DNA from: a virus
Lineage: Duplodnaviria; Caudoviricetes
Virus record (IMG/VR): IMGVR_UViG_3300022917_000018
Span: 1 to 42,344 of that record
Direction: 5' to 3' (one strand)
Length of the DNA stretch: 42,344 nucleotides
Positions 2,966-39,490 of the stretch are shown one piece after another; positions within the stretch are counted from its first letter, which is position 1, and every line of letters begins with the position of its first letter. A program made the translations under genes and the position numbers. The notes below the pieces were generated by a model, which saw only the letters and a program-made list of their open reading frames with translations, did not search any database and was not told where the DNA came from.

Positions 2966-3204
2966 TGTCTTAACTCCTGCATTACAACCTGCTTAAGAAC
3001 GACTGGAGTGTATCTAGGCTTTGGATATTCAAACCCATCGACGCGCTTAATAGCCTCTTCTTTCGACTTCTCTATCGAGAGTTGCGTTGCCTTAATAAGG
3101 GCGTCTTGATATTCGTCACATCCTTCAGTACGCCATGAGAAATCATAGTAGGTGTGCTTAAAATGATTGTCCTCTACGAAGACGCCGGGGATATACTTAC
3201 TCAT
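2962..3204 (-). CDS. Hypothetical phage protein (start revised to MSKYIPG)
   Basis: ATG at 3204 couples to the stop of the upstream gene; the longer 3315 start overlaps that gene heavily. Confidence 0.65.
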   Translation of the reverse strand: MSKYIPGVFVEDNHFKHTYYDFSWRTEGCDEYQDALIKATQLSIEKSKEEAIKRVDGFEYPKPRYTPVVLKQVVMQELRQ

Positions 3205-3619
3205 GATATGCCTCACTGTTGGTAGCCCTGTACCCAGCTTTATTCCGAGCTGTAATATATGCACCGTCTTGGGCTTTATTAATGGCGTCCTTGTAGCCTG
3301 TGCGGCCTGCCTCACTGTTGGTAGGGATAAGCTGGCGTTTCGCCTCGGCTATTAAGTCTTGGTAGCGTGCTCGGTTCCAGAGTTGCGTATTGTCATCCCA
3401 ATACACGGCAAACTCTTCCCCGTCAATGGTATTGAGCATCATAGGGCGCATACGCTGGATGGTACTCTCAACGGTCTTGACGTGCCTTAGTTCCTGAGCC
3501 CCCCTATCCTGCTTAATGAGCTGCATGATCCTAGCGAGCTTTTGTTTCCGGATAACCGGCTGCTCAAATATCTCACGGAGCTCGGCATCTACCTGCTTTT
3601 CTAAGAGTTCATCATCCAT
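3197..3619 (-). CDS. Hypothetical phage protein (start revised to MDDELLE)
   Basis: AGGAAGGA upstream of ATG 3619. Confidence 0.7.
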   Translation of the reverse strand: MDDELLEKQVDAELREIFEQPVIRKQKLARIMQLIKQDRGAQELRHVKTVESTIQRMRPMMLNTIDGEEFAVYWDDNTQLWNRARYQDLIAEAKRQLIPTNSEAGRTGYKDAINKAQDGAYITARNKAGYRATNSEAYHE

Positions 3620-5376: not shown

Positions 5377-5630
5377 TTCGGCATGTCCTTATAAGACAGA
5401 CCTTCTTTCCATTTGATGAATCTTGCCCTTTTGGTGAGTTCTGATGCCCTATCGCTCGAAAAATCTTCGTTGAGTTTTTCTGCAGTCATAGGCGCAACCT
5501 TTGGGTAGTAGAATGCGTCACACTTCTCGCACCAGTAAATATCTGGATAAAGCATGCTCGCAGGTATGAATACCCAATCCCCGTGTCCTTTAGGGCAGTA
5601 GGTGTCATCCCAGCTGTAAGTTCGTGCCAT
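5370..5630 (-). CDS. Small zinc-ribbon-like protein
   Basis: CPKGH...WCEKC; GGAGG RBS. Confidence 0.75.
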   Translation of the reverse strand: MARTYSWDDTYCPKGHGDWVFIPASMLYPDIYWCEKCDAFYYPKVAPMTAEKLNEDFSSDRASELTKRARFIKWKEGLSYKDMPNN

Positions 5631-5651
5631 ATCATCCTCCAGGGTTAGTTA
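5623..5651 (-). repeat. Cassette boundary box A (TAACTAACCCTGGAGGATGATATGGCACG), copy 1
   Basis: 29-bp exact match to 11563-11591; 15-bp partial copy at 11725-11739. Confidence 0.95.
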
Positions 5652-5962
5652 TTATTGCCTTTATCGGGGTTAGTGAGCTGATCCAGACGTTTTGTAAGAT
5701 CCGCTAGACGCTGCAATTTGAACTTGGAGATGTCGCGTCCCTGGTTAATGGCCTGTTCTAGCAGGTCTAGCTCAACAAGACGCTGCTCCAAGGCATGCCT
5801 ATTGTTTCTAGCCTCATCACGTTTGTGGATGAGAGCCATAATCTTATCAACTGTGTCAGGACTTAGGGTTCTCTTAAACCTATGTGCGCTATGCGATAGT
5901 AGAGGGATATTCAACTGTAGGTTTTCTATCTGCCTCCGTAGCCCATCATTCATTTCACTCAT
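5645..5962 (-). CDS. Hypothetical coiled-coil phage protein
   Basis: 105-aa ORF. Confidence 0.75.
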   Translation of the reverse strand: MSEMNDGLRRQIENLQLNIPLLSHSAHRFKRTLSPDTVDKIMALIHKRDEARNNRHALEQRLVELDLLEQAINQGRDISKFKLQRLADLTKRLDQLTNPDKGNNN

Positions 5963-10850: not shown

Positions 10851-11077
10851 TATTCCTGTCTCCCTTCATCGTGCGAGCGCAAAAGCTCCAGACGTTCGTT
10901 AGTATTAAGATGTTCATTGCTACAATCGGGACACCACATATCCTGCAACTCAGCGTCGTAAACAATGCTGTCATGTTGGCAACGGATAGCGAGGTGTAGA
11001 CCTTCTTCGAAGTCGCCTTCGCTCCAGTCATCATCTAGCGCATATGTGGTGGGATGCTCTATTACGTTAATCTTCAT
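10850..11077 (-). CDS. Hypothetical protein with C.H...CPDC motif (start revised to MKINVIE)
   Basis: GGAG RBS before ATG 11077; upstream extension is a hairpin. Confidence 0.65.
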   Translation of the reverse strand: MKINVIEHPTTYALDDDWSEGDFEEGLHLAIRCQHDSIVYDAELQDMWCPDCSNEHLNTNERLELLRSHDEGRQE

Positions 11078-11100
11078 GTCATTCTCCAAGTTATTTGAAG

Positions 11101-11181
11101 ATAGGCAGGAAACTGCCCTGCTGTCGTACATGGCTGCATGCTTATTGGCTCATGTACAGTTCGAGGACAGGTTGCTACCTA
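11101..11181 (-). other. Intergenic long imperfect stem-loop
   Basis: ATAGG/CCTAT closing pair and GTACATG/CATGTAC inner stem. Confidence 0.5.
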
Positions 11182-11206
11182 TCTGTTTGTTATCTATGGT
11201 TATGTG

Positions 11207-11371
11207 TTAGTCAGCCCGTAGCGTATAGGGCCAGTTGTGTTTGTCGTAATAACGCAGCAGCTTCTTCAGCTTGAATTGATACCACTTTGGCTTATCGTAT
11301 ACTGGCGGGCTAAAGCCGAGTGACACAAAGCTGTTTGCTAGTGCTGACACGAGCTTTTCTCCCTTTGCCAT
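11207..11371 (-). CDS. 54-aa hypothetical protein, not in ORF track
   Basis: MAKGEKLVSALANSF...; GGAGG RBS. Confidence 0.7.
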   Translation of the reverse strand: MAKGEKLVSALANSFVSLGFSPPVYDKPKWYQFKLKKLLRYYDKHNWPYTLRAD

Positions 11372-11377
11372 ACATTC

Positions 11378-11397
11378 CTCCATTTAGGGGTTAGTTA
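11378..11397 (-). repeat. Cassette boundary box B, copy 2
   Basis: Identical to 5357-5376. Confidence 0.9.
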
Positions 11398-11570
11398 GTA
11401 AACTTCAGCACGTTGATAAGGTCACCTGACTCGTTCTGGACATTTACGATGACGTGCTTCTTACCCTTGCGGGCTTGAGACTTAGCATAGTGAATCGCTT
11501 TGCCGCGCTCGTGCTCGAACTCTTCTATATCATCATTCTCGCAGGCGACGCTGTAGTAGTACCGTGCCAT
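11391..11570 (-). CDS. 59-aa hypothetical protein, not in ORF track
   Basis: MARYYYSVACENDD...; GGAGG RBS. Confidence 0.75.
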   Translation of the reverse strand: MARYYYSVACENDDIEEFEHERGKAIHYAKSQARKGKKHVIVNVQNESGDLINVLKFTN

Positions 11571-11591
11571 ATCATCCTCCAGGGTTAGTTA
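11563..11591 (-). repeat. Cassette boundary box A, copy 2
   Basis: Identical to 5623-5651. Confidence 0.95.
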
Positions 11592-11717
11592 CTTTTTCTT
11601 ACGTGCTATACAAGGCTCGCCACATTCTTCGCAGAAGTACTTAACCTGTTGGTCTTCCTCGATTCTCACGGGAGCACCGCAACAGTGGCTTTCGTATTTC
11701 GGGTAGGGCCTCTTCAT
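11589..11717 (-). CDS. 42-aa zinc-finger protein, not in ORF track
   Basis: SHCCGA...YFCEECGEPC; GGAGG RBS. Confidence 0.7.
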   Translation of the reverse strand: MKRPYPKYESHCCGAPVRIEEDQQVKYFCEECGEPCIARKKK

Positions 11718-11747
11718 ATATGTGCCTCCAGGGTTAGTTGGTTATAT

Positions 11748-12038
11748 TTAGTTAGCTCTGGCCTTCAAGAGTTCGACGACCATCTCTACGGCTTTATCAC
11801 TAAAGATGATCATGTGACCTGCTTCTCTGCCAGCCGGATAATCGACTTGTGAGTCAGCAGAAATTTCATTCAAGAATTCTTCGGCTTCTTTGTATAACTC
11901 TTCCTTGGATACGTATCCATCGAGGGCAATATCATACCCCTCCCAGTTATCTACACCGGCCGATTCAAGTCGTTGCATTATTGCTTTTGCGTTCTGTAAT
12001 TCCAGGTATTCTTGTTTTGATATAGTCACATTACTCAT
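11748..12038 (-). CDS. Conserved phage protein (LESAGVDNWEGY motif)
   Basis: Motif widespread in phage hypotheticals; GAGGAGG RBS. Confidence 0.8.
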   Translation of the reverse strand: MSNVTISKQEYLELQNAKAIMQRLESAGVDNWEGYDIALDGYVSKEELYKEAEEFLNEISADSQVDYPAGREAGHMIIFSDKAVEMVVELLKARAN

Positions 12039-12060
12039 ACCGGCCTCCTCTTAATTAAAG

Positions 12061-12294
12061 TTACTTATACCAGTTATCATGTTTAAGGGTTACTACCTTA
12101 AAGGCGTATTGATGAACGCAATAGCCCAAAAACCTATGTTTCTCCGGTGCCAGGTGTCCAGTTCTATACTCCACCTCGCTATCTGGGGACTTACCGGTAA
12201 TGTAGAAGTACTTACCTTTAATCCAGGCGCGCGGAGCACCGTCATCTGTTTTCCTGCTGAGCCATACGGAACTAATAGTTAGAACTCGGTTGAT
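12061..12294 (-). CDS. 77-codon ORF with apparent ATC start (or mutated ATG)
   Basis: GAGGAGG RBS 6 nt before ATC; open frame to TAA at 12061; in-frame stop just upstream of the RBS. Confidence 0.5.
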   Translation of the reverse strand: MNRVLTISSVWLSRKTDDGAPRAWIKGKYFYITGKSPDSEVEYRTGHLAPEKHRFLGYCVHQYAFKVVTLKHDNWYK

Positions 12295-12328
12295 GTTACT
12301 CCTCCTCGCTTAAGTTACTTATACTTGC

Positions 12329-12446
12329 TTGAAGACAAATGGCTGCCGCTGCTAACTTACTTCCGTTTACTCCGACTTTCCCGCTTCGGTGAGTCATCGG
12401 CCTAGGGGGCATGTAAGTTGCCGAAGCTGCGGCCAGCTGTCTTCAA
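12329..12446 (-). ncRNA. Structured RNA module 4
   Basis: Closing stem TTGAAGACA/TGTCTTCAA; inner TGGCCGC/GCAGCCA-like and AACTTAC/GTAAGTT stems. Confidence 0.55.
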
Positions 12447-12490
12447 ACTTATCTATTACTACCAGCTGAACCGTCTCTAACGGTGTGTAT

Positions 12491-12610
12491 GGGTAAGAGC
12501 GTATGGTGCTAGTAGCAACTCCTATGAATTGATGGCATTGCCAATGCGTACACTCTTCTCATAAGAACGACTACGCAGACGGTTTACTACCAGCTTCATA
12601 CGCTCTACCC
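12491..12610 (-). ncRNA. Structured RNA module 3 (GTAGAGCGTAT closing stem)
   Basis: GGGTAGAGCGTATG/CATACGCTCTTACCC; second stem has G-U pairs only on the minus strand. Confidence 0.65.
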
Positions 12611-12619
12611 TCCGCTACC

Positions 12620-12829
12620 CTAAAAAACAAGAGTAGCGATAACATTGTCTACGTGTAGATTGAGACCCCAGCCTATAAGGGCTGCAATTGCTAGCAATCC
12701 AACACGATGCTTCTTAGCTACAAACCATAGAATTCGTGTCGTGGACATCTCCGAGATAACCCTGATGCCTGATTTAGTTGGTTTGCTTACTACTTCTGAA
12801 TCTATATATTCTTTGTTGTGTACTAACAT
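12620..12829 (-). CDS. Small membrane protein, first gene of early operon
   Basis: GAAAGGA RBS; hydrophobic VGLLAIAALIGWGL. Confidence 0.7.
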   Translation of the reverse strand: MLVHNKEYIDSEVVSKPTKSGIRVISEMSTTRILWFVAKKHRVGLLAIAALIGWGLNLHVDNVIATLVF

Positions 12830-12877
12830 AGTTAGTCCTTTCTATTTTGTTGTTTGTGTCTGGCGTAGAGCACCCAT

Positions 12878-13013
12878 AGGGAGAGGCAGGGATTTGGACA
12901 GCGTCACCCTGCATGATTTAAGCTCATCCTCCTTGGTGCGCTTTACCTGGATTCTCTCTCGAACAGACTTAAATCTTTCGAGCTTAAGCGTCTACCTATT
13001 CCGCCACTCTCCC
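12878..13013 (-). ncRNA. tRNA-Leu-like scaffold RNA with replaced anticodon arm (module 2)
   Basis: Acceptor GGGAGAG/CTCTCCC, Leu-type D arm TGGCGGAATAGGTAGACGC, T-stem GCAGGG/CCCTGC with enlarged loop, TTAAGCTC/GAGCTTAA enclosing ~50 nt. Confidence 0.75.
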
Positions 13014-13028
13014 TAAAGGGGCTCTACT

Positions 13029-13116
13029 GTAGAGCGTATAGCACTGACACTGAAGCTTACCAATCCGGCCGGCCGCAGCGTTGTCGTAACCTTAGTGCCA
13101 GAGATATACGCTCTAC
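13029..13116 (-). ncRNA. Structured RNA module 1 (GTAGAGCGTATA closing stem)
   Basis: Perfect 12-bp stem 13029-13040/13105-13116 plus GCACT/AGTGC. Confidence 0.65.
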
Positions 13117-13124
13117 TATGTTCA

Positions 13125-13135
13125 AGTTGTAAAAG
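13125..13135 (-). promoter_or_regulatory. boxA-like motif CTTTTACAACT, copy 2
   Basis: 11-bp identity with 13477-13487; resembles rrn/nut boxA. Confidence 0.45.
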
Positions 13136-13296
13136 GGCGCACTTAACCAGAGCTAACCACCATACGTTAGACTTTATGTGCTAGTTTGACCTCAGTCATA
13201 AGTCTACGAAAGTTCTCTTCAGTTACTCTGCGCGCTGGCTCGTAATATGACGAGCAGTCGGGCTTGTTCACTTTGGAACAGGTTTCGTTATCCTGC

Positions 13297-13325
13297 CGAG
13301 GTCATAACCCTTTGTAGTGACCTCG
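13297..13325. repeat. 29-bp dyad site (11-7-11); 23/25 inverted match to 14980-15004
   Basis: CGAGGTCATAA CCCTTTG TAGTGACCTCG. Confidence 0.85.
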
Positions 13326-13333
13326 ATATTAAT

Positions 13334-13363
13334 AAAAAAACCTCTCGTCTTCTAACGAGAGGT
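13334..13363 (-). terminator. Intrinsic terminator downstream of tRNA fragment
   Basis: CCTCTCGT-TAGAAG-ACGAGAGG followed by T7. Confidence 0.85.
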
Positions 13364-13376
13364 GAAAGTTTACTGA

Positions 13377-13431
13377 TGGAGCCGACAGAGGGATTCGAAC
13401 CCACGACCCGCTGTTTACAAAACAGCCGCTC
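13377..13431 (-). other. attP-like 3' portion of tRNA-Thr(UGU)
   Basis: Anticodon arm GCTGT-TTTGTAA-ACAGC, GGTTCGAATCC T-loop, TGTCGGC-T-CCA; no matching 5' acceptor/D stem at the right distance; ~130 bp from integrase stop. Confidence 0.8.
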
Positions 13432-13476
13432 CGTAAACTGACATTGTCTCTGTTAGGAGATGAATATGTTCAGCTT

Positions 13477-13487
13477 AGTTGTAAAAG
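13477..13487 (-). promoter_or_regulatory. boxA-like motif CTTTTACAACT, copy 1
   Basis: ~30 nt downstream of the predicted early TSS; identical to 13125-13135. Confidence 0.45.
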
Positions 13488-13521
13488 ATTCGGCCTCGTC
13501 TGTGCTCGGCTTACTGTCTTA

Positions 13522-13550
13522 ATACTAGCATAACTGTTATGTGATGTCAA
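13522..13550 (-). promoter_or_regulatory. Strong sigma70-type early promoter with palindromic operator-like spacer
   Basis: TTGACA-17-TAGTAT with TG extension; ATAACAGTTAT palindrome in the spacer. Confidence 0.8.
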
Positions 13551-13565
13551 TAGACAAACGATAAG

Positions 13566-14432
13566 CTAGATAGTAGTATAGCTCACTTTGTTCATGGTGT
13601 CATCAAAACTCTTATGCACACGCGTGTTTCTAAAGTGAAGGTAGATCATAGTGGTGTGGATCTTCTCATGCCCAAGTATCTGCTGGGCTTCTTCAATACG
13701 CCCATCGGCCTCTAAATAGGTAGTAGCGCCCGTATGCCGGAGTGTATGCGGTGTTACCTTCTTCTTAATGCCAGCCTTTTCTGCATAGAACTTCACTTTA
13801 CGAGCAACGATAACTCTACTTAATGAATTGCCATCCGGATTCGGGAATAGTGGGCCTGGATCGTTACCCCTTCTCAGCTTAATATAGAGGTCTAGGGCAG
13901 CTTGTGCTTCTTCTGTTATGAATACGGGTCTAGGCTTGCCACCCTTGCCCTTGCGGATGAGTACAGAGCGTTTGTGAACGTCATCGTATTGTATGTTTAT
14001 AAATTCAGTAACACGTACCCAGCTAGTTAGTAAGAAGAGCATCATGGCCTTATCACGGATGTCATCTATGACGGATATAAACTTCTGCGCCTCCTCCATT
14101 TCTAAGAAGTTAGCTTCTTTGTTCCACTCTTCTTTGGGTACTTCTACCTTTTCAGGTTTAATATCTGCTAAGTCCTTTATATATAGGTAGCGTACAAAGC
14201 TGCGTACTGCATTAAGCTTGCAACGGTATGTCTTGGAAGCGTAGTTACGGAGGCTTAGCACATCCGCAAAGTAGTCAACATCATCAATATGCAGCTCAGA
14301 GACAGGCTTGTTGCCTGTTATGTCAGCGAACTGCGCCAATATACCTCTATAGGTATCTATTGTCGTCAGTGACCTGTTTTTGCGCATACGTAAATAGCGC
14401 AGAAAAGCATCAACTGCCTCTGTAGTATTCAT
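13566..14432 (-). CDS. int: Tyrosine integrase/recombinase, XerC/D size, no arm-binding domain
   Basis: Catalytic R (VRVTE), K (KGKGGK), HTLRH, LGH, Y (TTMIY); adjacent tRNA fragment. Confidence 0.92.
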   Translation of the reverse strand: MNTTEAVDAFLRYLRMRKNRSLTTIDTYRGILAQFADITGNKPVSELHIDDVDYFADVLSLRNYASKTYRCKLNAVRSFVRYLYIKDLADIKPEKVEVPKEEWNKEANFLEMEEAQKFISVIDDIRDKAMMLFLLTSWVRVTEFINIQYDDVHKRSVLIRKGKGGKPRPVFITEEAQAALDLYIKLRRGNDPGPLFPNPDGNSLSRVIVARKVKFYAEKAGIKKKVTPHTLRHTGATTYLEADGRIEEAQQILGHEKIHTTMIYLHFRNTRVHKSFDDTMNKVSYTTI

Positions 14433-14447
14433 TTGGTTTAGACTCCG
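14433..14447 (-). promoter_or_regulatory. Integrase RBS box CGGAGTCTAAACCAA
   Basis: Directly precedes ATG; exact inverted copy at 15062-15076. Confidence 0.85.
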
Positions 14448-14595
14448 CCTGTAAGTAATCTTACAGTTATCAATATAGCCTTACATCCTTCCCATTAATA
14501 CAAAAGAAAGATCACATACAAGTAGAACTAGCGTATAGTAGTGTTACGCGCTAGTTTTGCTTGTATTTCTCTCTATTTAATCTATTGGTAACCTT

Positions 14596-14735
14596 TTGTT
14601 CGCTGCCTGTGTACTCTACAATCTTGCTTGTTTTACTAACCTAGTTATTCCTGTTTTCAGAGCATAGATCTAGGCTGGTAGTGTGTTAATAGGAAACAAA
14701 CAAAATTGTAAAAGTACAAAGGCAACAGCGAGCAA
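14596..14735. other. ~140-nt rod-like imperfect hairpin
   Basis: TTGTTCGCTG/CAGCGAGCAA, TGTACT/AGTACA, TACAAT/ATTGTA, TTGTTT/AAACAA in register. Confidence 0.7.
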
Positions 14736-14904
14736 TGCCATCTATTGGTTTAACCTGTTGATGGCGTAAGGTTACGTACCCTCACGTAATTGCTCACTTC
14801 CCTTATTCCCGTCCTCATCACATGAGTCTGAGTGTGGCGTACCGGCATTAACGCACCCGGTACTTTAAAGTGTCGCGAAATCCGCACATTATGCTTGACA
14901 AATG

Positions 14905-15006
14905 AAAAAACCTCGTTCGGAATTTCTCCAAAACGAGGCATTTTTCGTGGTTTTGTCACTACAATAATGCCTCGGATACCGAGGTCACTACAGCGGGTTA
15001 TGACTA
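14905..15006 (-). ncRNA. Candidate sRNA-A (~100 nt)
   Basis: Promoter TTGTAA-17-(TG)TACACT at ~15012-15040; terminator CCTCGTT...AACGAGG-T6 at 14905-14938; no credible ORF. Confidence 0.55.
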
Positions 15007-15044
15007 GCAACTAGTGTATCAGATAGTGGTCTAGATTACAAGTT

Positions 15045-15152
15045 AGGACACTCCCCTAGAACGGAGTCTAAACCAATCAGCAAAGCTCGCGCCTTGTTTT
15101 CGGGAAGTGCCCCTTCCTCAGCGCGATGAGATTACAGAGATTGGTTTAGACT
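15045..15152 (-). ncRNA. Candidate sRNA-B
   Basis: TGcTAGGAT extended -10 just upstream; 14-bp closing stem AGTCTAAACCAATC/GATTGGTTTAGACT; inner CGCGC/GCGCG stem. Confidence 0.55.
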
Positions 15153-15180
15153 TATATTATCCTAGCATATTAGGTATATA

Positions 15181-15315
15181 CTACTTCAAGTCTTTTTTAA
15201 AAAAGATAGCGTGACAGTTATTGCACTCGACCTCTTCAGTGGGTTTAGTACCCTTTTCAATGACTATAGCGTGTACGCCGCAGTTTAGACAGGCTTTAAG
15301 GTTGATCTTTGGCAT
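15181..15315 (-). CDS. 44-aa zinc-ribbon protein, not in ORF track
   Basis: MPKINLKACLNCG...ECNNCH; AGGAG RBS; own TGcTACAAT promoter at 15347-15355. Confidence 0.7.
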   Translation of the reverse strand: MPKINLKACLNCGVHAIVIEKGTKPTEEVECNNCHAIFFKKDLK

Positions 15316-15387
15316 ATAGCTCTCCTAATTGGTTTAGACAATCCGCATTGTAGCAGGTAGCTAATCCTAAGATCATTAAATGGCATA

Positions 15388-15408
15388 GAAAAAGACCCCG
15401 AAGGGTCT
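15388..15408 (-). terminator. Intrinsic terminator
   Basis: AGACCC-TTCG-GGGTCT followed by T-tract. Confidence 0.85.
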
Positions 15409-15411
15409 CCT

Positions 15412-15492
15412 CTACTTGCGCTTGCTGATTACTCTTGATGCAGCGGCAAGCCCCAGTACACTTACAATAAGTAAGGTCGTAAAAACTACCAT
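15412..15492 (-). CDS. 26-aa hydrophobic peptide with basic C-terminus (type I toxin-like), not in ORF track
   Basis: MVVFTTLLIVSVLGLAAASRVISKRK; GGGGGA RBS; own promoter and terminator. Confidence 0.6.
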   Translation of the reverse strand: MVVFTTLLIVSVLGLAAASRVISKRK

Positions 15493-15510
15493 CTATCCCC
15501 CGATAATACT

Positions 15511-15590
15511 AAAAGAGCAATCTTCTGGTGATTAGGCCATGTATCCCGAAGGATACGTGAAGATTGCTCTTTTGTGTTGGCCTAATCACC
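15511..15590 (-). promoter_or_regulatory. Interleaved-stem (A-B-A'-B') 5' leader with cUUCGg hairpin
   Basis: GGTGATTAGGCC/GGCCTAATCACC (12 bp) and AAAAGAGCAATCTTC/GAAGATTGCTCTTTT (15 bp); TATAAT at 15595-15600. Confidence 0.75.
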
Positions 15591-15602
15591 TTTGATTATA
15601 CA

Positions 15603-15761
15603 CTAGACCATTCGGGCAGCAAAGTCCGCCATAAAGACTACAATACCCACTAGGATCCCTACGAGTACCGCAATGGGATCGGTAACTTTACAGCTGTTAA
15701 GTAGATAGCGTGTCAGAAAGCCCGCTATAAGGGCTAGGATTAGATTAATTAATAGTTCCAT
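15603..15761 (-). CDS. 52-aa two-TM membrane protein (holin/antiholin-like), not in ORF track
   Basis: MELLINLILALIAGFL...IAVLVGILVGIVVFMA; follows holin. Confidence 0.65.
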   Translation of the reverse strand: MELLINLILALIAGFLTRYLLNSCKVTDPIAVLVGILVGIVVFMADFAARMV

Positions 15762-15763
15762 AT

Positions 15764-15955
15764 CTATAAACCTTTCTTGTTAGGAACGCTTATCACACCA
15801 CCAGCTGTGATAGCTGCAATCAGCGGCTGTAGCCAAAGGGCGTCAGGGAAGTAGTTGGATAGCAGTGTCATTAGGAAACCAGCGGCGGCTACCCAGAACT
15901 TAGCGTATACCTCTGGTCGTTCAAAAACATCTTTCGCATAATCTAATATACTCAT
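15764..15955 (-). CDS. Holin
   Basis: Two TM segments, YAKFWVAA...GVISVPNKK; adjacent to endolysin. Confidence 0.7.
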   Translation of the reverse strand: MSILDYAKDVFERPEVYAKFWVAAAGFLMTLLSNYFPDALWLQPLIAAITAGGVISVPNKKGL

Positions 15956-16653
15956 TTCAATAACTCCTTAATCTTTCTAAATTTCTCGGCATCTGACTGG
16001 TCGGTCGTTGACGCCGTCTGTATCTGGTCATAGGCCACAAGCTTATCGTTCTGGCTGCGCCATTTGTCATAGTTCACGAGTGCCCTAACGACTTCCGCAT
16101 ACGGCTGGCCCTTTACCGACTGTATAGCGTCGTCGCTAATGTTCTCGGGAACCTCGTGTAATATAGCAACGAACAGATCGCGCGCCTTATTGTCAGTATC
16201 AATCATCTCATCTCCTCTCTTGCTGCTTAATGCTATCATCGGGTTAATGTATCCCCTATAGCCATTGGTCATATCAGGACTATGAGGCCGGACACCCCAA
16301 TGCAGGTGCGGGCCTGTGACTTCACCGGTGGCCCCAGTGTAGCCAATTAACTCTCCCTCTTGCACCTCCTCGCCTGGATAGGCCAGACGCTTAGAGAGGT
16401 GTAGTAGCCAGTGCTCGAAGCTATCGCCCTGGATTATAATGGTCTCCCCGGCTACATACCGGCCGCTCCTGTCGTCTGTCAGGCCATTTGCTGACTTTAG
16501 AATGTAGCCATGTTCTGGGGCGTATACAGGCTTAGGTACTAACGCACGGCAGTCACAGCCATGATGGCCGACAAGCCCCCACTGTGCATAGTCGTAGCCG
16601 TTCTCGCCAAAACCCTGGACAATATCAATTTCTTCGTCTAATGGATAACGCAT
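15952..16653 (-). CDS. Endolysin, M23 family peptidase
   Basis: HHGCD (HxxxD), HLS, GATGEVTGPHLH (HxH), INP. Confidence 0.85.
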   Translation of the reverse strand: MRYPLDEEIDIVQGFGENGYDYAQWGLVGHHGCDCRALVPKPVYAPEHGYILKSANGLTDDRSGRYVAGETIIIQGDSFEHWLLHLSKRLAYPGEEVQEGELIGYTGATGEVTGPHLHWGVRPHSPDMTNGYRGYINPMIALSSKRGDEMIDTDNKARDLFVAILHEVPENISDDAIQSVKGQPYAEVVRALVNYDKWRSQNDKLVAYDQIQTASTTDQSDAEKFRKIKELLK

Positions 16654-38134: not shown

Positions 38135-39490
38135 CTAATGTGCCCACATGTTAGTTATATTGCCGGTACTAAACGATTGATCCTCTTCCTCAGGCTTAGC
38201 GAAAGGCATAAGCCCATAGCGCAGCATGTCATAGTCGTGGTCGTCTGCCTTGGTGTCAACGTCATCGACTTTAATCTTGTCGTAAGGAAGCGACGGTAGC
38301 GTGCGTATGATGCTCACACAAGTGCTAAAGAACTGGAGTTTAGGTAGCCCATCCTTGGCAGTACGTAAGTACTCATGTACGGTGTCAAGCCCTGCCTTAC
38401 GGTCGTTGTTAGCGGGCATCCAGTTAACACCTTCGTCAGAATAGATTTGAGCGATACTCTTACCCGTTGCGTGGCTACCTTGTCCTGCTGCCCATATAGA
38501 GGGGTCTGCCATGCCATATGCAACATTCTCGCCTGCTTCAAACTGCTTGATGTTACGAGATTTGTCACTAATGGTGGTGTACTCAGTAGTCCTGTATTCT
38601 CTATACATGTAGATCCGTTCGCTAGCAGGATCCTGAGCGAACCAACCTACGGCGTTGTTATTACCATGGTCCATTGCACGCCAGCGTTGCCAGTGTGAGG
38701 GGATGGTAAAGGGGTCAACAACATGTTTATCGCGCGTGAACTCTCGGAATACCTGGCCAGAGAATACATCCCAGTCACCATCCTTAAGCGCCCTACGCAG
38801 TTGTGGATCGGATATAGCAGCCAGTGTGCGTTTGTAGTCAGTCTTGAACTTCTCAATAGGGTGGTCGTCTACCTTAGCAGGGATGAATACTCTAGTACGC
38901 GTCATGCCCTCATCTAGGTTAACTGTGTTGACAGTCTCAGCTGGTACAGGATCAATGAAGCGTGACTTAACCCACCCATGGCCAATGCCTCCAGGGTTAG
39001 TACCTGCTAGAAACATCACAGGCCAGTCAGGATTGCTTGTACGGTTACGAGTAAGTAAGTACTCTATCCATGCCTGAGGAAACTGTGTGAGCTCGTCTAC
39101 ACATATTATGGGCATTTCCGAACCCTGGTAGCGGTATATGTCATTATCATTGTCTAGGTAGTTCAGAACGAGGCTGGAGCCGTTGGAAAGTATGTACTTA
39201 CGGTCTTGGCCGTGCCATGTCATATGACCTGCGCGTATGTAAGCACCATATTGCTTGTTGATCTCAGGAATAATAGTAGCCTTGAGCTCGGGTATGGTAC
39301 GCCTAAACAGGTTCACTGGTATACCAGGATACTCCAAGGCTAATGTGCCACCCTCCGCTACGATAGCAGCAGTCTTGCCACCACCTGCCGCGCCACCGTA
39401 TAGCTTCTCGTCAGCAACCATTCTATGAAAGACGGCTTGACGATCACTAGCGGTATAATCAGGAACTTTTACTTGGACGGGGGACGTCAT
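38135..39490 (-). CDS. terL: Terminase large subunit
   Basis: Walker A YGGAAGGGKT, Walker B ICVDE, TNPGG, nuclease AMDHG...ADPS...DDHDYDMLRY. Confidence 0.95.
   Translation of the reverse strand: MTSPVQVKVPDYTASDRQAVFHRMVADEKLYGGAAGGGKTAAIVAEGGTLALEYPGIPVNLFRRTIPELKATIIPEINKQYGAYIRAGHMTWHGQDRKYILSNGSSLVLNYLDNDNDIYRYQGSEMPIICVDELTQFPQAWIEYLLTRNRTSNPDWPVMFLAGTNPGGIGHGWVKSRFIDPVPAETVNTVNLDEGMTRTRVFIPAKVDDHPIEKFKTDYKRTLAAISDPQLRRALKDGDWDVFSGQVFREFTRDKHVVDPFTIPSHWQRWRAMDHGNNNAVGWFAQDPASERIYMYREYRTTEYTTISDKSRNIKQFEAGENVAYGMADPSIWAAGQGSHATGKSIAQIYSDEGVNWMPANNDRKAGLDTVHEYLRTAKDGLPKLQFFSTCVSIIRTLPSLPYDKIKVDDVDTKADDHDYDMLRYGLMPFAKPEEEDQSFSTGNITNMWAH

Follow-up and report, generated by a model that had tools for sequence, protein, structure and literature searches.

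The 42,344-nt viral record IMGVR_UViG_3300022917_000018 of IMG/VR (here called the window) carries two short complementary RNA elements in the control region around its integrase gene (int). One of them, the unit, lies upstream of int and has its own predicted promoter and terminator, and the other, the partner, is a hairpin that heads the early leader downstream of int. This RNA pair was found in 27 phage loci, of which 24 (the window included) were analysed in detail and 3 more were added, and its two halves covary. From the comparison of these loci and the folding of the units, we somewhat favor a reading in which early-leader RNA antiterminates the unit, while terminated unit RNA neutralises the leader RNA in lysogens and gives immunity. 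The elements needed for this argument are:

14902 to 15005, minus strand: conserved unit RNA, a predicted attenuator leader and small RNA (fold z -6.1)
15004-14976 (segment 1, antisense), 14974-14966 (segment 2), 14942-14934 (segment 3) and 14915-14905 (segment 4 with the U tract), minus strand: segments of the unit
15013 to 15041, minus strand: predicted sigma70 promoter of the unit (8/12 consensus, 17-nt spacer)
13566 to 14432, minus strand: tyrosine integrase of 288 aa with a SAM-like and a catalytic domain
13296 to 13329, minus strand: partner hairpin heading the early leader, with complementarity to segment 1 (fold z -4.7)

The initial annotation of this region had described three inverted matches between short minus-strand units and control points, and all three were recovered at their positions. 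The match at the ribosome-binding site (RBS) of int is 15/15 (15062-15076 against 14433-14447). That at a zinc-ribbon gene is 12/12 (15066-15077 against 15328-15339) and extends over the Shine-Dalgarno (SD) sequence to 22 nt with 19 Watson-Crick (WC) and 2 G.U pairs. The leader match, noted as 23/25, is the core of a longer one of 26/29 (14976-15004 against 13301-13329; 26 WC pairs, 1 G.U and 2 mismatches). To estimate chance levels, the 261-nt unit region was shuffled and compared with the remainder of the genome. Exact matches of at least 15 nt appeared in 9/1000 shuffles and those of at least 12 nt in 394/1000, so a 12-mer alone is at chance level, and the leader pair is not. Over 150 shuffles the duplex score peaked at 17.2, compared with 22.3 for the leader pair, 17.6 for the zinc-ribbon pair and 15.6 for the int pair; the int score was reached in 6/150 shuffles, and the leader and extended zinc-ribbon scores in 0/150. 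Two extra boxes (14767-14776 against 13085-13094 and 14732-14742 against 12531-12541) were rejected as chance-level (3 matches, shuffle mean 1.3, P 0.16). As judged from the relatives, only the match between the unit (15005-14902) and the hairpin (13329-13301) is conserved among the three.

The relatives were taken from scans of viral contigs, and their integrases are about 25-44% identical to that of the window. Their layout is fixed: a promoter, an antisense segment of 21-29 nt, a terminator, and behind it replication genes and/or int. About 5-10 nt separate the start of the antisense segment from a sigma70 -10 element upstream of it (two alignments reach further 5'), the terminator and then int lie downstream on the same strand, and the partner begins 5-16 nt behind the U tract of a terminator downstream of the phage attachment site (attP). 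The units had been annotated as carrying promoters. Consensus matches are indeed present, and they are weak and unlisted by the promoter scan (8/12 for the conserved unit, an extended -10 only, by eye, for the others); at the position of the window's unit promoter the relatives have promoters of 9-10/12. The 20 distinct antisense segments share a median identity of only 46%, yet 483/521 positions form WC pairs with their own partner. The cognate partner was the best or tied in 21/24 loci. In a 7-member clade, compensatory changes occurred in 12/25 columns, with 116 kept against 20 not kept, and L229 and L234 differ by a single A-U/G-C swap on both sides, each pair remaining 24/24. The leader pair thus shows the covariation between box and target that pairing at the RNA level, as first proposed, would leave behind.

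The orientation of the matches also bears on whether they work as RNA. In L239 (26/26) and L066/L067 the early operon is inverted, and the DNA match becomes a direct repeat while the RNAs are still complementary. A direct match with a flipped operon and an inverted match on one strand is what RNA pairing requires. Outside positions 11-15 the non-WC pairs were 16 G.U, 0 A.C and 1 other, and inside them 13 A.C, 1 G.U and 1 other; the split was chosen after inspection and the sequences are related, so this is a pattern and not a P value. A simple excess of G.U over A.C fails overall (19:18:5) and holds only after this post hoc split. The matches might instead be operators in the DNA, bound by a repressor that was not recognised (the zinc-ribbon protein, for example), or repeats acting at the DNA level. 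A window-specific box that occurs 4 times, twice at predicted start sites, would suit such a role, and a repressor could have been missed in a record rated as incomplete. However, the conserved pair consists of non-palindromic matches of 21-29 nt that are unrelated between phages and whose orientation tracks transcription, substitutions outside the centre are of the G.U type, and the phages share no DNA-binding protein. We therefore regard operators as a highly improbable explanation of the pair; for the window-specific box alone that reading may hold.

The loop of the pair comes in types. In the L012 clade (71 hits on 56 contigs), all 15 two-ended contigs pair a type A unit with a type A partner (6 perfectly, 5 with one G.U and 4 with one A.C). 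A type C partner was present in 4 whole records, and the unit was of type C in 4/4. Type B units and type B partners were found on 4 contigs each, never together. A mini open reading frame (ORF) inside the partner hairpin was rejected, being not conserved: loop types B and C lack its start codon, as does the L034 group.

The distribution of the pair was examined further in other loci. Of 14 rechecked loci, the pair was present in 3 and absent from 8, and a flank was missing in the other 3; 7 of the 8 without a pair missed the early-promoter pattern, and so did 1 positive locus. A relaxed-pattern search found the pair in 0/24 extra loci, all with distant integrases. Metagenome and genome scans likewise gave only distant integrases, which were used as background, and no close integrase was found among annotated phages (best about 31%). 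No unit was seen in G008 (79% complete), while L231 has a unit and its available sequence ends before the partner side. In 125 mostly cellular integrase loci, the identical automated scan gave 23 weak or direct-repeat matches and no same-strand score above 16.6. Across 28 unrelated loci from viruses, the highest-scoring long-range same-strand duplexes reached 12.6-20.3, and the weakest true pairs (L006, 19.6; L046, 18.6) therefore rest on position besides score. Separately, L027 has a 28-nt complementary pair (5112 and 5364) downstream of an unrelated integrase, in a different layout.

To evaluate the effect of pairing on the unit, its folding was compared with the antisense segment free and blocked. 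The antisense covers at least 2 basal pairs of the unit's own terminator stem in 22/24 units. The predicted terminator probability was above 0.8 in 23/24 free units and below 0.5 in 24/24 with the antisense blocked. In the 22 overlap cases this fall is driven by the constraint, so the evidence lies in the overlap kept across unrelated sequences, together with the relay seen in the two exceptions, the window and L067. In the window the four segments form a 1:2/2:3/3:4 attenuator, in which segment 1 normally holds segment 2 and the terminator is 3:4. The partner on segment 1 is predicted to free segment 2, which then pairs with the terminator's 5' arm, segment 3 (9 bp and an inner helix). The probability of the 3:4 terminator was 0.97 in the free unit and 0.04 with segment 1 blocked, an unconstrained cofold with the partner gave the same 2:3 antiterminator, and only 1/300 shuffles of the relay region lost the window's terminator. 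The initial annotation had proposed that small RNAs from the units act on complementary mRNAs. Control at the RNA level without a recognisable repressor is well supported by these results, but it is probably not simply a small RNA repressing an mRNA: the geometry predicts that the leader RNA destroys the unit terminator, and no repressive refolding of the leader was found.

The genes behind the unit terminator are an HTH_36 initiator and a DnaB helicase in L012, a replisome organiser in G007, ORF X or a non-coding element in others, and always int; in relatives the slot between the unit and int is thus taken up by rep/DnaB genes, by a replisome organiser, by ORF X or by a further conserved non-coding element. 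In 20/21 loci the stretch from the unit to the first ORF showed no promoter, a test that is uninformative for the window. There the corresponding stretch is:

14433 to 14900, minus strand: non-coding slot between the unit and int, with one weak 9/12 promoter at 14689-14661

ORF X (L026:3562-3918 and homologues) is a conserved four-helix protein of 90-130 aa in one clade and is absent from the window. It gave no convincing Pfam match and no PHROG family, and DnaD domains appeared at Z 4.5-4.7 amid unrelated helical bundles. L227, L229, L234 and L239 share a conserved structured non-coding element of about 200 nt between the unit and int, a candidate origin or RNA, which was not detected in the window.

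With replication genes behind the unit in two clades, the pair could govern a primer or initiator as in plasmid copy control (ColE1 RNA I, CopA) and have no part in lysogeny. The window has no recognised initiator, it has long structured non-coding stretches, and the geometry is that of kissing hairpins, all of which would fit. On the other hand, the partner is linked with attP and with the early promoter, int is always behind the unit, and the pair persists in a clade with its own rep and iteron-like repeats. This explanation, which we consider improbable, partly overlaps the antitermination model, in which the gated genes include those for replication.

The partner side was then analysed. 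The initial annotation had overlooked attP, the early promoter, the terminators and a boxA-like motif in this control region. These elements are:

13522 to 13550, minus strand: strong predicted early promoter just after int (10/12, extended -10)
13376 to 13431, minus strand: attP core, the 3' 56 bp of tRNA-Thr(UGU) (56/56 identity)
13333 to 13363, minus strand: intrinsic terminator behind attP that stops about 7 nt short of the partner
13124 to 13135, minus strand: boxA-like motif in the early leader (10/12; second-best minus-strand site)
14703 to 14714, minus strand: boxA-like motif in the untranslated stretch between the unit and int (11/12; best minus-strand site)

The attP core is 56/56 identical to intact tRNA-Thr(UGU) genes with different flanks in two metagenomic runs, and the integrated ends of relatives sit at tRNA-Thr(UGU) too. 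ARAGORN called no tRNA in the window, and relaxed thresholds yielded noise. L276 and L364 (G007) carry the same module behind a different att site, the 3' half of another tRNA; the module is therefore not tied to tRNA-Thr. A promoter similar to the window's lies about 200-300 nt before the partner in 18/21 leaders. Because attP lies between the early promoter and the leader, integration should separate the two. A promoter hidden in the att terminator was rejected (no usable -10 by eye), and so was a leader-borne antiterminator for this terminator, since folds showed no conserved pairing. The integrase had been annotated as lacking an arm domain, and only the SAM-like and catalytic domains were found; an arm-binding domain was not detected in it.

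In the window the partner hairpin is followed by a long structured leader. The boxA-like motif stands behind the partner in 15/21 leaders compared with 14/767 background windows, and between the unit and int in only 2/21 loci. The matrix was built without the window, whose top two minus-strand sites were at 14716 and 13137. The core of the motif resembles the gamma-proteobacterial boxA consensus given in PMC5725501 and lacks its 5' part; a literature search gave no report on such antitermination in Saccharibacteria, the likely host group. A second copy of the 5' arm of the partner hairpin occurs at 13188-13195 (minus strand) and could serve the hairpin's 3' arm as another, long-range pairing site.

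This arrangement also suits a one-way immunity like that of phage P4, in which a constitutive unit small RNA would bind the nascent leader and cause premature termination or decay, the overlap with the unit terminator being incidental. It would produce the same covariation and immunity-type loops, it agrees with the absence of a repressor and with the partner's position at the head of the early operon ahead of the boxA-like motif, and it has a precedent in P4 (PMC4825925). It leaves unexplained, however, a pairing that invades or relays to the unit terminator in 24/24 loci at a cost in binding energy, as well as rep and int without a promoter of their own, and blocking the partner gave no terminator, boxA occlusion or rut (Rho utilization) signal. 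Such one-way immunity is thus possible but doubtful. P4 CI RNA and its seqA-seqC sites resemble the present pair in giving repressor-free immunity through antisense pairing with an early transcript, according to the same source. P4 CI is processed from the regulated transcript, uses two short sites and causes termination. In contrast, the unit has its own promoter and terminator and lies 1.7 kb from a single target of 21-29 nt, its pairing is predicted to abolish a terminator, and its carriers are full-size tailed phages, not satellites.

Based on these results, the somewhat favored antitermination reading can be laid out in steps, whose functional content we infer from complementarity, covariation, layout, the overlap or relay between antisense and terminator, attP and the boxA-like motif, all read from sequence and comparison. 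After infection or excision, the early promoter would read through attP and the leaky terminator, yielding the hairpin RNA. This RNA would bind the nascent unit, segment 2 would pair with segment 3, the terminator would fail and int would be transcribed, in other clades along with the rep and helicase genes. Integration would then cut the early promoter off the leader, the unit would terminate, and a unit RNA of about 55-105 nt would accumulate. This unit RNA would neutralise leader RNA from leaky or superinfecting genomes, with the loop sequence setting the immunity type. In the early leader, boxA would recruit host Nus factors and transcription would be carried through the long untranslated stretch. 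The silencing or titration of the leader by the unit RNA is suggested by the missing repressor and the immunity-like loop types.

Several observations weigh against this model. The partner sits behind a terminator in the free and integrated states alike, and this state-specificity is the main gap; binding would also have to outrun the folding of the terminator. For the immunity arm, folding predicts no structural change of the leader: with the partner blocked, no new terminator arose and boxA accessibility was unchanged, and the rut signal was not enriched, with C>G in only 12/21 leaders. BoxA occlusion and rut enrichment as a silencing route were rejected on these grounds. On the unit side, loss of the terminator in the 22 overlap cases follows from the folding constraint itself, the relay control of L067 is weak (43/300 shuffles lose the terminator), L006 and L046 lose their terminators only partly (0.48 and 0.32), and the weak 9/12 promoter (14689-14661) stands between the window's unit and int. 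The overall count of 19 G.U against 18 A.C shows no asymmetry, and L238/G002 lacks the pair although its integrase and ORF X are present. Finally, the window record is rated only 54% complete, and an HTH_3 gene is present in G003, albeit beside terS in the early operon and some 7.5 kb downstream of the partner hairpin.

The claim that the phage has no recognisable CI, Cro or excisionase was borne out by PHROGs and Pfam searches, in which no CI/Cro/Xis/repressor family was found among 93 window ORFs, and by six-frame searches of the window with HTH_3, HTH_17, HTH_26, S24 and RHH_1, which gave zero matches. Two sub-threshold helix-turn-helix (HTH) hints (E 0.03-0.05) both lie within the window's early operon. 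In related records at least 90% complete, S24 and RHH_1 matched 0/9, HTH_17 and HTH_26 matched 1/9 below the cut-off, and HTH_3 matched 1/5; all HTH matches among relatives belong to G003, chiefly to the one gene beside terS. From these profiles a protein repressor was not recognised in the window, and a divergent one could still be encoded. In L231 (oriented), a small ORF at about 3100-3250 reads like a ribbon-helix-helix protein and lies in an insert upstream of the unit.

Nearly all genes of the window are on the minus strand, in the order early recombination/nuclease genes, terminase, capsid, tail, lysis, control region and integrase. Although CheckV puts its completeness at 54%, the record is probably near whole, given that complete relatives are mostly 31-41 kb. 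A sequencing run that contains the entire stretch, and may be where it came from, is a metagenome of leaf litter. The host is likely a member of Saccharibacteria, as judged from two relatives: next to the integrated G001 lies a gene whose product clusters with a Candidatus Saccharimonas protein, and G003, which carries the RNA pair, resembles the window in capsid (60% identity), terS (61%) and probable portal (41%). Prophages have been reported from the Candidate Phyla Radiation (CPR), and the accessible parts of that literature give no switch mechanism. We found no description of the two-RNA module in the accessible literature, which for this check includes the available parts of PMC12647753, PMC10746230, bioRxiv 10.1101/2020.04.29.069278, PMC13753749 and PMC2864571; supplementary catalogues of candidate RNAs could list the unit unnamed.

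Among known systems, Rfam gave no relevant family in the window or in 6 relative loci. The c4 family of P1/P7 (RF01695) is a further case of antisense control in a temperate phage; it had no match at E<=5 in 11000-16200 and none at the gathering score in the window and the 6 relative loci. In c4, loop variation defines immunity types, and c4 controls an antirepressor beside a protein repressor. No icd, ant or C1 homologue was detected in the window by ORF family searches. T-boxes sense a trans RNA, uncharged tRNA, through short contacts and choose between terminator and antiterminator. In pT181-type attenuators the antisense is cis-encoded and induces termination, a sign opposite to that predicted for the unit and its partner. 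The present pair resembles both in that a trans RNA would pick terminator or antiterminator, and the window's four-segment layout is that of a classical attenuator. In Gifsy-1, IsrK is likewise part of a prophage RNA-RNA switch with read-through of an intrinsic terminator, as described in PMC4825925. There IsrK activates translation of its own read-through isoform, leading to a Q-like protein, whereas here two loci are involved and the predicted output is control of termination.

The closest parallel in design is synthetic. In engineered small transcription activating RNAs (STARs), a trans RNA binds a linear stretch together with the 5' half of a terminator ahead of a gene and turns the gene on, as given in PMC5648800. 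The natural loci show the layout of a STAR target (promoter, linear or looped recognition region, intrinsic terminator, and a gene without another promoter, the window having its weak site before int), and the partner is complementary to the recognition region and the terminator 5' arm by overlap in 22/24 units and by relay in 2. In contrast to STARs, the activating RNA here comes from the start of a natural early transcript, the two partners each form a hairpin and keep a mismatch at the centre of their pairing, and the activator would in turn be acted on by the terminated leader. The module extends antisense control in phages and would be categorically new if the antitermination toggle is confirmed. 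We see an even chance that a lineage of CPR temperate phages runs on an RNA-only lysis-lysogeny toggle, in which a natural STAR opens the replication/integrase operon through invasion of its terminator, a terminated leader opposes it, and dozens of orthogonal loop codes define immunity groups. For lysogeny in temperate CPR phages the pair offers a concrete mechanism, and the genomes studied here show no recognisable repressor. If antitermination holds, the pair would be a natural counterpart of STARs and a protein-free bistable switch, and its 20 or more divergent cognate pairs would be a library of orthogonal RNA regulators. Even a weaker reading would carry immunity by RNA alone beyond the P4 satellite into full-size phages and give a sequence rule for predicting immunity groups from metagenomes.

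The two remaining inverted matches belong to a separate, window-specific set:

15060 to 15152, minus strand: window-specific hairpin RNA, unit 1, with its 3' arm at 15087-15060 (fold z -5.6)
14433 to 14447, minus strand: integrase RBS box complementary to the unit-1 arm (15/15; 17 nt with G.U)
15181 to 15339, minus strand: zinc-ribbon ORF of 44 aa (15315-15181; no family match) with the box at its predicted mRNA 5' end (15339-15328)

Unit 1 (15152-15060) has copies of the box in the two orientations and folds back on itself (14/14), a feature absent from the first reading. Three sites can pair with its arm (15087-15060): the 5' end of unit 1 itself, the SD of the zinc-ribbon gene and the int RBS. 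The three pairings extend in different directions. The arm is mostly sequestered in cis, and in a cofold its binding to the int RBS is still possible with a free-energy change (ddG) of -13.6 kcal/mol. A comparable int RBS pairing was found in 0/8 relatives tested (best score 11), whose integrases are more distant than the closest ones, which are 56-60% identical to the window's. The initial idea of a multi-sRNA (small RNA) switch as a general feature is not upheld, as the int-RBS pairing is absent in 8/8 relatives and the int and zinc-ribbon boxes answer to one cis-sequestered arm. In the window itself, the unit-1 arm may be a second, translational lock on int, and the box may also have a protein-binding role.

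Further features were noted outside the pair. In the early leader, 12878-13013 (minus strand) folds into a tRNA-like cloverleaf (fold z -2.3) with acceptor, D and T arms recognisable by eye, an anticodon loop expanded to about 60 nt and a long T loop; it was not called by ARAGORN or Rfam, and is a possible RNase P processing site. Two long leader hairpins (13029-13116 and 12496-12608, minus strand) have the same basal stem sequence. A repeated motif of 16-34 nt covers the RBS region of several early genes (5623-5656, 11563-11596, 11712-11745 and 38986-39001), and an early gene at 11748-12038 (minus strand) matches the T7 gp5.9 RecBCD inhibitor family. Upstream of the zinc-ribbon gene, interlocked 12- and 15-bp repeats (A-B-A'-B') at 15385-15595 (minus strand) stand ahead of a 26-aa hydrophobic ORF (15492-15412) with a terminator, and this region, with a fold z of -5.5, looks like a type I toxin-antitoxin leader.

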